From contig NZ_SBIV01000008.1 in NCBI RefSeq assembly GCF_004765795.1, positions 124,001 through 188,000 on the forward strand: a stretch of 64,000 bases of DNA, written 5' to 3'. How positions within the stretch are numbered: position 1 is the stretch's first letter; each line of letters begins with the position of its first letter. The position numbers were made by a program, and so were the translations under genes. Below are positions 52,847 through 55,672 of this stretch, in pieces. This stretch comes from Halorussus marinus. Its GTDB lineage: Archaea; Halobacteriota; Halobacteria; Halobacteriales; Haladaptataceae. Under the pieces are notes generated by a model, which was not told where the DNA came from, searched no databases, and worked only from the letters and a program-made list of their open reading frames with translations.

Positions 52847-53706
52847 GCTGGCGCGTCGTCGCCCGGAAGGACTTCGCGGACGCGGTCCGGTCGCGGATGC
52901 TGTGGGGCATCGTCGGGCTGTTCGCGCTCCTGATGGGGGTCTCGGCGCTCGTCCCGAGCCTCCTCGATATCGGGGGAGCGACCCTCGGTTACAATTTCGC
53001 GGCGGACCTCGCCCAGACGCTGGTGCCGGTGACCGCGCTCGTCGCGGCCTACCTCGCTATCGCGGGCGAGCGCGAGTCGGGCAGTATCAAGCTCCTGCTC
53101 GGGGCGCCCCACTCGCGGTTGGACGTGACCGTCGGGAAATTCGTCGGGCGCGCGGGCGTCGTTCTGGTCGGCGTGCTCGCCGGGTTCGTCGTCGCGGGGC
53201 TGGTCGCGGTGGTCGCTTACGGCGAGCTCGCGATCGGCGAGTTCGTCTCGGTGACGGTGCTGACCGCGGCGCTCGGGGTGACGTTCGTCGGCATCGCGGT
53301 CGGCATCTCGGCCGCGACCAGCACCCGCTCGCGGGCGATGGCGCTGGCTATCGGGGTGTTCTTCGTGTTCGCGCTCCTGTGGGATCTGGTCCCGTTCGCG
53401 CTCACCTACCTCCGGACCGGCGGGCTGGATCTCGGCGGAACGGTGCCGGCCTGGCAGGTGCTCGTCGAGCAGTCGAACCCCTCGCGGGCGTTCAGCCAGC
53501 TCGTGGACGCCGCACTCGGCTCGGGCGCCGAGATGACCGCGGGCGGTGGCGGGGGCGGCGAGGGCGCCGCCAACCCCTTCCAGAGCCGGATAGCCGGAGC
53601 AGAGCCGTTCTACCTGAAAGACTGGTTCATGCTCGTCATCCTCGGGGCGTGGACCGTCCTGCCCGTGATCGCGGGCCACCTCCGATTCCGGAGCGCCGAC
53701 CTATAG
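52843..53706 (+). CDS. ABC-2 transporter permease (NosY-like)
   Basis: ARKDFADAVRS, IAGERESGSIKLLL..PHSR..V.VGKF. Confidence 0.9.
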   Translation: MSWRVVARKDFADAVRSRMLWGIVGLFALLMGVSALVPSLLDIGGATLGYNFAADLAQTLVPVTALVAAYLAIAGERESGSIKLLLGAPHSRLDVTVGKFVGRAGVVLVGVLAGFVVAGLVAVVAYGELAIGEFVSVTVLTAALGVTFVGIAVGISAATSTRSRAMALAIGVFFVFALLWDLVPFALTYLRTGGLDLGGTVPAWQVLVEQSNPSRAFSQLVDAALGSGAEMTAGGGGGGEGAANPFQSRIAGAEPFYLKDWFMLVILGAWTVLPVIAGHLRFRSADL

Positions 53707-54183
53707 CTCGCGTTTCTGCTTGTCGAGGACCCGGACGCGGTCGATCGCGGTGTCGGGGTACTGGCCGTCGGCGTCCTTCTCGGCGGCCTTCACCATGTCC
53801 CAGACCACGTTCAGCCCGGTCGTGACCCCTTCTAAGGCCTCCATCTCACAGCCGGTCTTGCCGGTCGTCTCGACCGCGACCTCCAGAGTCACCCGATCGT
53901 CGTCGAGTTCGAAGTCGGTCTCGACGTTCGTGATCGGGATCTGGTGGCACATCGGGATCGTCTCCCAAGTGTGTTTGACCGCCTGCACCGCCCCGACCCG
54001 GGCGGTCGCGAGCACGTCGCCCTTGCTCACTTCGTCGTCGCGGATGGCCGCGATCGTCTCGGGCCGGAGGGTGAGTTCGCCCGCCGCGACCGCCCGCCGG
54101 GCGGTGTCTGGCTTGTCGCCCACGTCGACCATCTGGACGTCGCCGTCGGCGTCGGTGTGGGTCAGGTCGTCGGAGTCACTCAT
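53701..54183 (-). CDS. moaC: cyclic pyranopterin monophosphate synthase
   Basis: LTH...MVDVGDK, KGDVLATAR, IPMCHQI, GCEMEAL, WDMVKA. Confidence 0.95.
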   Translation of the reverse strand: MSDSDDLTHTDADGDVQMVDVGDKPDTARRAVAAGELTLRPETIAAIRDDEVSKGDVLATARVGAVQAVKHTWETIPMCHQIPITNVETDFELDDDRVTLEVAVETTGKTGCEMEALEGVTTGLNVVWDMVKAAEKDADGQYPDTAIDRVRVLDKQKREL

Positions 54184-55672
54184 CGCGATCACCCCACACG
54201 GCGCGGGGCAGGGCATCCAGCAGGTCCGAGGCGACCAGTCCGCCGCGGCGGTCGTCGAGCAGTTCGGCCGCCCGGCCGTTCGCGTAGGTCCCCATGCAGG
54301 CGGCCGCGAACGCGTCGTGGCCGGCGAGCAGGCCGGCGATCGCGCCCGCGAGGGTGTCGCCGGTGCCGCCGACGGTCATGCCGGAGGTGCCGGCTCGCGA
54401 GACGCGGGTCCGCTCGCCGTCCTCAGAACTCTGGGAGTTCTGATGGGCTCGGAAATCGTCCGCCGATTTCCGACCGTCGGCCACGACGTCCTCGCGGGCC
54501 TTCGCGACCACGACGTGGCCGAGGTCGGCCGCGAAGTCCGCGATCTCGTCGGCGCGCTCGCCCAGTTCGTCGGCGCCCTCGATCTCGGGGCCGCCCATCT
54601 CCGCGAGTTCTTTGCGGTTCGGGGTGCAGACCAGCTCGGCGTCGGTCTCGACTGCGGGCACCACCGACACTGCGTCGGCGTCGACGACCGCCCTCCCGGA
54701 GAACGATTCGAGGAAGCGCTCGGCGGCCTCGACGGTCTCGTCGGCGGTCCCGAGGCCGGGCCCGAGCACCACGACGTCGTCGTACGCCTCGGCGGTCTCG
54801 ACGAGGGCGTCGACCTGATCGGGCGCGAGTCGCTCGCCGTCGTACGACTGGACGATGAGGTCCTCGGCGAACCCCTGAATCCCGTCGGCGACCGTCTCGG
54901 GCGCGGCGACGAACGAGAGGTCCGCGCCCGCCCGGAGGGCGGCCTGCGCGGCGAGCGCCGGCGCTCCGGTGTAGGGGCCGCCGCCAACGACGAAGACCCG
55001 GGCGTCGTCGGCCGGGGGACCGCGACGGACCGGTCGCATGTCGCCGGGCCCGAGGTATCGTTCGGCGGCCGCTGGGATGCCGATGTCCGCGACCGTCACC
55101 GCGGCCTCGAGCGCGTCGAGGCCGGGCTTTTGGTCGTGGAAGGTCACGACGCGGTCGGCCGCGACCGCGGCGCCCGGGGCCACACCCGTGTCGGCGTCGA
55201 CGCCCGACGGGACGTCGACCGCGACGACGGTCGCCTCGGCGTCGTTGATCGCTCGGGCGGCGGTGGCCTCGGGGTCCCGAAGCGCGCCGGTCACCCCGGT
55301 CCCGAGCATCGCGTCGACGACCACGTCGGCGTCCGGGAGGTCGACGTCACGGGAATCGCCGACCGCCTCGCGGTCGATCCCCGCCCGCCCGAGCGCGTCC
55401 CAGTTCTCGCGGGCGATGTCGGTCGCGATCGTCTCGGCCCTCCCGAGGAGGTGGACCGACACGTCGTACGCCGAGAGAAACCGGGCGGCGACGAAGGCGT
55501 CACCGCCGTTGTTACCCCGCCCGGCGACGACCGCGACGCGGGCGCCCGGATCCGCGACCGCTCGGACTTCGCGGGCGACGGCGTTGCCGCTCGACTCCAT
55601 CAACTGCTTGCGCGGGATTCCGAGTGCGGCCGCGTTCTCGTCGACCTGCGCCATTCGCTCGGCGGAAATCAT
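54176..55672 (-). CDS. nnr: bifunctional NAD(P)H-hydrate epimerase/dehydratase
   Basis: LMESSG, GRGNNGGD, DAMLGTG, VDVPSG, GPGLG, VVDADA, MTVGGTGDTLAG; carries a 19-aa insertion. Confidence 0.94.
   Translation of the reverse strand: MISAERMAQVDENAAALGIPRKQLMESSGNAVAREVRAVADPGARVAVVAGRGNNGGDAFVAARFLSAYDVSVHLLGRAETIATDIARENWDALGRAGIDREAVGDSRDVDLPDADVVVDAMLGTGVTGALRDPEATAARAINDAEATVVAVDVPSGVDADTGVAPGAAVAADRVVTFHDQKPGLDALEAAVTVADIGIPAAAERYLGPGDMRPVRRGPPADDARVFVVGGGPYTGAPALAAQAALRAGADLSFVAAPETVADGIQGFAEDLIVQSYDGERLAPDQVDALVETAEAYDDVVVLGPGLGTADETVEAAERFLESFSGRAVVDADAVSVVPAVETDAELVCTPNRKELAEMGGPEIEGADELGERADEIADFAADLGHVVVAKAREDVVADGRKSADDFRAHQNSQSSEDGERTRVSRAGTSGMTVGGTGDTLAGAIAGLLAGHDAFAAACMGTYANGRAAELLDDRRGGLVASDLLDALPRAVWGDRDE
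54417..54478. mobile_element. 57-bp double-hairpin palindromic insertion flanked by 5-bp direct repeats (CCGTC), in frame within nnr
   Basis: Hairpins TCAGAACTC-TGG-GAGTTCTGA (54423-54443) and TCGGAAATCG-TCCGC-CGATTTCCGA (54449-54473); CCGTC at 54417-54421 and 54474-54478. Confidence 0.75.

Follow-up and report, generated by a model that had tools for sequence, protein, structure and literature searches.

The window analysed here is a 64,000-nt stretch of the Halorussus marinus genome (contig NZ_SBIV01000008.1). Its minus strand carries the gene for a bifunctional NAD(P)H-hydrate epimerase/dehydratase (Nnr), and a 57-bp element consisting of two hairpins lies in frame within this gene. The downstream open reading frame (window 53701–54216, minus), which we take to be moaC-like, abuts the end of nnr, so that the hairpins would lie in a shared transcript. 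The features are as follows.

54176..55672, minus strand: nnr, encoding bifunctional NAD(P)H-hydrate epimerase/dehydratase, 498 aa, with YjeF_N and Carb_kinase domains (Pfam)
54418..54474, plus strand: 57-bp element in the tagged orientation (CG-TCC, hairpin 1, TGGGC, hairpin 2, C)
54418..54421, plus strand: left-end tag CGTC, in which CG is the junction core and TC comes from the element (basis: loci L274 and L296 and the IS605 left-end sites)
54419..54448, plus strand: hairpin 1 in its extended form, with the conserved core TCAGAA-N9-TTCTGA (54423–54443) and a predicted basal stem
54449..54473, plus strand: hairpin 2, with a 10-bp stem; the variable module of the family
54475..54478, plus strand: target-side CG core and CGTC, which fits the family preference CG-Y-C

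The two perfect inverted repeats of the original prediction were found again, with a 9-bp stem at 54423–54443, a 10-bp stem at 54449–54473, the linker TGGGC, and CCGTC starting at 54417 and again 57 bp further at 54474; the order along the window is CCGTC-C-hairpin 1-TGGGC-hairpin 2-CCGTC. The perfect 9-bp stem of hairpin 1 stands, but the hairpin is predicted to extend over 54419–54448 through a basal stem that includes a bulged T at 54444 and a T.G pair. On the minus (coding) strand, the 57-bp element reads DGRKSADDFRAHQNSQSSE. As had been claimed, the stretch is more AT-rich than its gene (GC content of 58% versus 74% for nnr), and its folding is unusually stable (z = -4.4 and -4.7 for the two strands; none of 200 shuffles equally stable). 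The 3.76-Mb Halorussus marinus genome contains 608 perfect hairpins with stems of at least 9 bp and four adjacent pairs of such hairpins, among which the nnr pair is the only one with AT-rich stems. The further copies sought in the same genome did not turn up, as neither an own-genome BLAST search nor two structural scans yielded a second one, and Rfam gave no match at the gathering score for the nnr site.

The nnr reading frame stays open across the insert, which corresponds to residues 399–417 (or 401–419, the same gap). A match to nnr is present in 41/41 genomes searched; 30 loci were fetched, and in all 29 of those from other genomes the gene has the compact form lacking the 19 codons, as had been expected, with a precise empty site that reads V/I-T/S-DG at the insertion point. 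Nnr of T. maritima (2ax3) is also compact, with a 19-residue gap at the insert. A contig from a halite metagenome omits precisely 54417–54473, and a contig of another DNA run, which may be the source sample itself, covers 54115–55000 with five differences and no gap. Judged from these alignments, the 57 bp are a lineage-specific in-frame insertion and one copy of a haloarchaeal double-hairpin family (see below). Nnr is a metabolite-repair enzyme that is generally reported to be dispensable, and calling its gene essential-type was an overstatement. In an alignment-based structure model (mean pLDDT 81), the insert sits between strands 395–399 and 422–425 with pLDDT <50, a value that owes partly to missing alignment depth at this position; a single-sequence model reached only pLDDT 39. 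Within the dehydratase domain, the insert would extend a predicted beta-turn; it is probably translated, and the protein probably tolerates it.

Other inserts occur in nnr as well. The nnr gene of a congeneric genome (G004, locus L016) has gained, independently and in another loop, a ~48-bp double-hairpin insert that keeps the frame; it follows the codons for ARFLD and has different stems and similar CG-bounded ends. That of G010 (locus L017) has a 14-residue insert near the N-terminus, which looks like a short tandem duplication and has no double hairpin.

The closest copy found in a scan of the genome collection differs from the nnr element at 3 of 57 bases and lies in frame in kae1/tsaD of Halogranum amylolyticum. 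For a census, a pattern consisting of hairpin 1 and the two following bases was used, in which the tag is not demanded and the end letter leaves out the Halorussus marinus copy itself. It matches 204/401 genomes of the order, in 59/89 genera, with no match for the reversed-pattern control, so that the suggested check for copies in other Halobacteria came out positive; related genomes are not independent observations, and the scan total (~150 matches listed and 594 more counted) includes some copies counted on both strands. By this pattern, there are 1–35 copies per genome. At the level of the phylum, 15/27 haloarchaeal genomes match, compared with 0/134 other genomes. Among 72,556 plasmid records, 24 match; the 20 listed are all haloarchaeal, and one copy resides on plasmid pHM300 of Haloferax mediterranei. 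Viral scans gave 12 and 10 matches, none with the two-hairpin layout. A metagenome scan with the hairpin-2 pattern returned 120 stretches, nearly all of unrelated bacterial DNA. A recurrent, apparently bacterial repeat in many metagenome contigs holds the same GGAAATCG-N5-CGATTTCC hairpin inside a longer palindromic context (L054, L064–L066, L082–L084, L091, L092, L096 and about ten more loci).

These findings bear on the simplest explanation, in which the insert is a local duplication or a chance palindrome in a tolerant loop and is not mobile. The single copy in the Halorussus marinus genome would suit it, as would the acceptance of unrelated inserts by the kae1 loop (two matches in a 331-genome survey, whose gap range was short and missed the positive G121). 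The insert is unlike its flanks, though, and a copy identical at 54/57 positions in an unrelated gene of another genome, together with several hundred family matches in the order against none for the control, refutes this explanation, to which we assign practically no weight. The empty site and the in-frame copies in unrelated genes instead agree with the non-autonomous palindromic repeat that had been proposed.

From the fetched loci, 104 non-redundant oriented copies were taken (113 in a later set), and 81 of them parse as CG-TC(C/A), hairpin 1, a 5-nt segment, hairpin 2, 0–3 nt and CG. The parsed copies are 51–63 bp long. A length divisible by three, thought to let the repeat colonise genes, holds for the 57-bp nnr copy and does not hold in the family, as 34/81 copies are 52, 55, 56 or 58 bp long. 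Copies outside the parse include arrays of at least three hairpins with similar ends. Arrays of 3–5 hairpins with similar CG-T...AA-CG ends (L187, L189, L038–L048, L197) are common in two genera of family f6 and are probably longer members of the same superfamily. In G197 and G343 (L329–L357, L382), most copies share one site inside an intergenic repeat of greater length, possibly a mobile carrier in its own right; three of these loci gave no match in Rfam. Copies at L033, L183, L199 and L130 adjoin tRNA genes or tRNA-like remnants, and an Rfam search of 12 family loci found nothing but tRNAs near some copies.

The 113-copy set contains 66 different hairpin-1 and 85 different hairpin-2 sequences. 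The predicted extension of hairpin 1 pairs GTC(C/A) with the segment that follows and leaves a bulged T; across this bulge, the basal pair of the stem covaries (A-T in 31 and C-G in 31 of 66 sequences, compared with a mean of 31.6 and a maximum of 43 in the shuffles). Just 2/66 sequences have a Watson–Crick pair at the T.G position, and the variable inner pairs are Watson–Crick in 63–64 of 66. The bulge and the wobble weigh more than the inner pairs, because relatedness among the sequences is disregarded by the shuffles and template switching alone, with no selection, can produce perfect stems. In 75/81 copies, the stem is followed by TGGGC, TTGGC, TGTGC or TTGCC. The hairpin-1 loops are 3 nt long, and in 41/66 one of the two strands reads GNA. 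GNA triloops are very stable in single-stranded DNA, which points to hairpins that form in DNA; since the two strands carry them nearly equally (19 and 22), the active strand is not fixed by this feature. When circularised, the element is predicted to fold as a two-hairpin dumbbell. In two pairs of loci at the same or a paralogous site (L225/L277 and L275/L276), the loop is inverted (GAA versus TTC), suggesting that loops flip in place, and hairpin 2 of the copies in some sensor kinases is similar to adjoining codons of the host gene, which suggests that it can be captured from flanking DNA.

The boundaries of the element are defined by comparison of empty and filled sites. By eye, 17 of the 104 copies correspond to a clean single gap of 51–58 bp against Halorussus marinus homologues. 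At locus L274, whose flanks are 90% identical to those of its empty counterpart, the empty site reads GG-CG-CA and CG alone is common to both junctions; clean empty/filled pairs in general have only CG in common, and the element supplies TC. The 5-bp target-site duplication that had been proposed is contradicted by these pairs and by the junction repeat over 46 target clusters, which is 2 bp in 16, 3 bp in 6, 4 bp in 16, 5 bp in 6 and 7 bp in 2. The CCGTC repeat in the window thus reflects a preferred target meeting an element that begins with CGTC. Outside CG, identity between the junctions equals the independent expectation at all positions except -1 (27 versus 17.9 of 81), where the excess comes from a subfamily ending in C (7/10 versus 15/65, p = 0.005). 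The right-end CG was demanded by the parser, and the A residues before it, which were not, are present in 68 and 62 of 81 copies. On the tagged strand, the target preference is CG-Y-C-G; position +2 is a pyrimidine in 51/55 sites and never A. There is no mirror (matching) bias at -1, no clear link between element variants and the +2 base of the target, and no difference in folding energy between targets and background.

Particular sites can be filled repeatedly. In an IS605 left end, L247 and L248 have an unoccupied ACAG-CG-CC site, at which L212, L218, L228, L268, L270 and L271 carry the element in the tagged orientation and L203 carries it the other way round; ~20 bp from this site lies a second CG, unoccupied in L247 and occupied in L228 and L251. 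On contig C11 of Halorussus marinus (~66,700–67,300), an IS605-type left end accompanies tnpB, and both usual insertion sites are empty.

Filling of one site in both orientations is what would be expected if the family were a miniature inverted-repeat element that moves as double-stranded DNA by a DDE transposase duplicating the dinucleotide CG. In most copies, each end, taken on its own strand, indeed shows CG-T (CGTC and CGTT), CG is present at both junctions, and the match of the base before CG to the target in the C-ending subfamily points the same way. However, the terminal repeat extends just 1–2 bp beyond CG, conservation sits in the internal bulged hairpin, the target preference is one-sided, with its +2 pyrimidine and its lack of matching at -1, and no transposon with such ends was seen. 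We consider this route improbable.

Copies within genes show how the family meets its hosts. Among the gene copies, 22 preserve the frame, and all 22 lie on the strand opposite the tag in the phase of the window copy, which yields acidic, Ser-rich, hydrophilic peptides; a hydrophobic one would result from the other orientation. Targets that keep the frame are about as frequent in one orientation as in the other (55,819 versus 60,453). By Pfam, the hosts are nnr, kae1 (2), MFS transporter genes (2), the gene for a DR2241-family protein, purK, a rhodanese-metallo-beta-lactamase gene, sensor kinase genes (7), an ETF subunit gene, amine oxidase genes (2) and purA; fibrillarin is a host by record annotation, and two further host genes are presumably YbhB-like and haloalkane-dehalogenase-like. 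The two kae1 copies occupy the same site in two genomes with different hairpins. An apparent ORF on the opposite strand at L215 overlaps a Pfam-annotated gene and was set aside. A profile search with the 22 insert peptides gave 19 matches, of which one is a WD40 false positive and the rest are mostly spurious short ORFs; the profile is too short for counting host proteins. This in-frame colonisation of unrelated genes agrees with the way of life, similar to that of Rickettsia palindromic elements (RPEs) or REP units, that the original prediction had suggested.

Genes disrupted by frameshifting copies encode a macro-domain protein, an acetyltransferase-like protein, two dehydrogenases, TnpB and IS6 transposases, and other copies occupy IS605 ends, tnpB and IS6 genes. 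The first RuvC motif of tnpB has been hit by a frameshifting insertion in two different genomes (L304 and L400), at positions that differ by a few codons. Frameshifting copies are mostly opposite the tag as well, with L316 and L311 as exceptions; given these exceptions, the frame bias probably stems from selection on the peptide, and it may also reflect a mechanistic strand bias. Gene copies would survive if their length and frame yield a hydrophilic loop peptide. The prevalence of one orientation relative to the host gene, even among frameshifting copies, could also be read as a sign of an archaeal intron-like insert that is spliced out of RNA and spreads by reverse splicing. Against this, both short-chain dehydrogenase genes that carry a 58-bp copy have further frameshifts, so that the insert appears to have killed them. 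Copies in the opposite orientation (L316, L311, L203), the single hydrophilic frame kept by all frame-preserving copies and the lack of an Rfam match also speak against splicing, which is very unlikely.

No mobiliser is encoded near the element, as originally noted, and the Y1_Tnp profile has no match even in the whole Halorussus marinus genome; the nnr copy may have inserted while a mobiliser was present or have come by recombination. An insertion sequence carrying the same ends, which had been suggested as something to look for, did not emerge from 22 tnpA loci (1.5 kb on each side, four element-rich genomes): hairpin 1 was never the end hairpin of the insertion sequence itself and occurred once, as an insertion into an end. 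The fetched copies include no autonomous version. Clustering of the ORFs around ~160 loci revealed no recurrent nuclease or recombinase and no dedicated gene; the recurrent neighbours are tnpB, IS6 transposase and sensor kinase genes. Three close pairs of copies enclose toxin-antitoxin-like genes, a tnpB or a duplicated spacer (labels by eye). The Y2_Tnp profile has no match in five genomes and equally none in the controls.

On the coding strand, a target GRCG stands 5' of the element, which terminates in GACG; this layout has been described for IS200/IS605 ends (PMC6006769, PMC8266576), and with it a true duplication is unnecessary. As far as the available text of PMC6006769 goes, no TnpA-Y1 class other than the IS200 type (subclass 1.1) has been reported in archaea. 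An attempt by eye to fit both element ends to the published 4-nt guide rule did not succeed. Our preferred reading, at a probability of roughly 0.55, is that this haloarchaea-wide, non-coding double-hairpin family is moved as folded single-stranded DNA by an enzyme acting in trans, most likely of the IS200/IS605 type. The element would fold as single-stranded DNA hairpins, perhaps through a small single-stranded circle as intermediate, and an enzyme encoded elsewhere, most likely a Y1 (HUH) transposase, would cut and rejoin the folded DNA at CG. That this enzyme is TnpA itself is a tentative suggestion, which we hold to be rather doubtful.

Two other routes would also start from a hairpin or a single strand. 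In the first, the family is a CGTC-REP-like repeat, and a small GIY-YIG single-strand nuclease (Ssn-like or UPF0213-like) nicks beside the tagged hairpin, after which host repair copies the hairpins in. CGTC stands directly 5' of the hairpin, as in NTS/SRM repeats, where the SsnA cut falls a few bases upstream according to the accessible parts of PMC11893778, and a stand-alone GIY-YIG gene is present in 5/5 genomes tested; but hairpin 1 lies within 1.5 kb of 0/5 small GIY-YIG genes, the published SRM pattern matches 0/113 copies, and Ssn is presented in those parts as a nuclease with no joining activity described (PMC11893778). This route seems unlikely.

In the second route, a host tyrosine recombinase or junction-processing enzyme would integrate a single-stranded DNA dumbbell by one strand exchange at CG, and replication would resolve the resulting four-way junction. 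Integron attC sites and the CTX phage integrate in this manner, through strand exchange on folded single strands. The predicted two-hairpin dumbbell, the four-way-junction topology of a filled strand paired with an empty one, the extrahelical T with a 2-bp core, and the absence of a dedicated gene near the ~160 loci are compatible with it, but no attC- or dif-like binding boxes were recognised and the targets share little beyond CGYC. We regard recombinase action as improbable too. Similarly speculative, and with the odds well against it, is the broader idea of a gene-free parasite of ~57 nt that circulates as a single-stranded dumbbell and enters by one strand exchange at CG via a four-way junction, with host recombination enzymes and no transposase. 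Were this true, it would be the smallest class of archaeal mobile element, would act as a hyperparasite on IS605 and IS6 elements, and would keep supplying core enzymes with new surface loops.

Selfish hairpins of the Rickettsia type that have probably turned into protein sequence are now found in archaea, in a group with good genetics. The movement of RPEs and CGTC-REPs is an open question, and PMC3733652 found no dedicated transposase for them. Because ends, 2-bp core and target preference are defined here from empty and filled alleles, exact substrates for candidate enzymes can be specified. For annotation, such inserts account for unusual Ser/Asp-rich loops in haloarchaeal proteomes and for part of the spurious short ORFs there.

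The family works like RPEs, CGTC-REPs and the PATEs of Haloquadratum, yet appears to differ from them in sequence. Like RPEs, it lies in frame in unrelated protein genes whose orthologues retain an empty site; RPEs, as described in the accessible sections of PMC3733652, are short palindromic repeats in housekeeping genes whose dimers add ~20 residues and for which no transposase is known, and RPE-4 and RPE-6 have been classed as CGTC REPs (Di Nocera et al., 2013, PMC3733652). It differs from them in its archaeal host, its stem sequence and loop length, its 1–35 copies per genome and its defined CG core and CGYC target. It may nonetheless be homologous in sequence to RPE families, for which the comparison, made through Rfam, gave no match at the gathering score. 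With CGTC-REPs, it has in common the CGTC tag directly 5' of the hairpin, the pairing of hairpins and the presence of intragenic and intergenic copies (PMC3733652, PMC11893778); by eye, the tag is on one side in all but about six of the roughly 150 matches listed. In contrast to the descriptions of these repeats in the text available, in which the tag is unpaired and the hairpin has an 8–9 bp stem, a 4–5 nt loop and a CCA tail, three of the four tag bases are predicted to be paired here, the loops are 3 nt long and there is no CCA tail. CGTC-REPs and NTS/SRM repeats are described in bacteria only, so far as the available text extends (PMC3733652; Chenal et al., 2025, PMC11893778), where the word Archaea is found only in the references of the former and is absent from the latter. 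The family is set apart from the SRM/Ssn system by the failure of the SRM pattern and, in the small sample of five genomes, by the lack of a GIY-YIG gene flanked by hairpins.

Within haloarchaea, the PATEs of Haloquadratum walsbyi (Dyall-Smith et al., 2011, PMC3119063, as far as available) are likewise transposase-free and non-coding, with near-terminal palindromes, no terminal inverted repeats and no target duplication, and PATEs reduced to 52 bp of terminal sequence appear mobile (PMC3119063). Unlike PATEs, with their one fused palindrome, the family has two hairpins in 51–63 bp; PATE ends are derived from IS605, and an insertion sequence whose own ends match the element may exist outside the 22 tnpA loci of four genomes, which contained none. 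Like SMR-A (PMC3119063), it inserts into the palindromes of IS605 ends, with two CG sites in one left end, but SMR-A is ~110 bp long with prominent terminal inverted repeats, and in-frame invasion of genes is not described for PATE or SMR-A in the sections of PMC3119063 at hand. These distinctions come from descriptions; the family may be identical with an HqIRS family, and the supplementary sequences of PMC3119063 may hold relatives. The bulged hairpin, the tetranucleotide at its foot, the dinucleotide-level junction and the lack of a fixed duplication recall REP/BIME units and IS200/IS605 ends (PMC6006769, PMC8266576, in part). In contrast to REPs and TnpA-REP (RAYT), the tag is CGTC and not GTAG, and the Halorussus marinus genome has no Y1_Tnp match; TnpA-REP classes are not reported in archaea in the accessible text of PMC6006769. 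A miniature inverted-repeat element with a fixed target-site duplication differs in that no constant 5-bp duplication exists here. A literature search that included the available text of PMC7002104 and PMC12306157 (the latter with no word beginning with "halo"), and outside which lay most subscription journals and ISfinder, found no published description of this haloarchaeal family. The kind of element (RPE, CGTC-REP, PATE-like) is already known, and what is new is a haloarchaeal family with defined ends and a CG junction.
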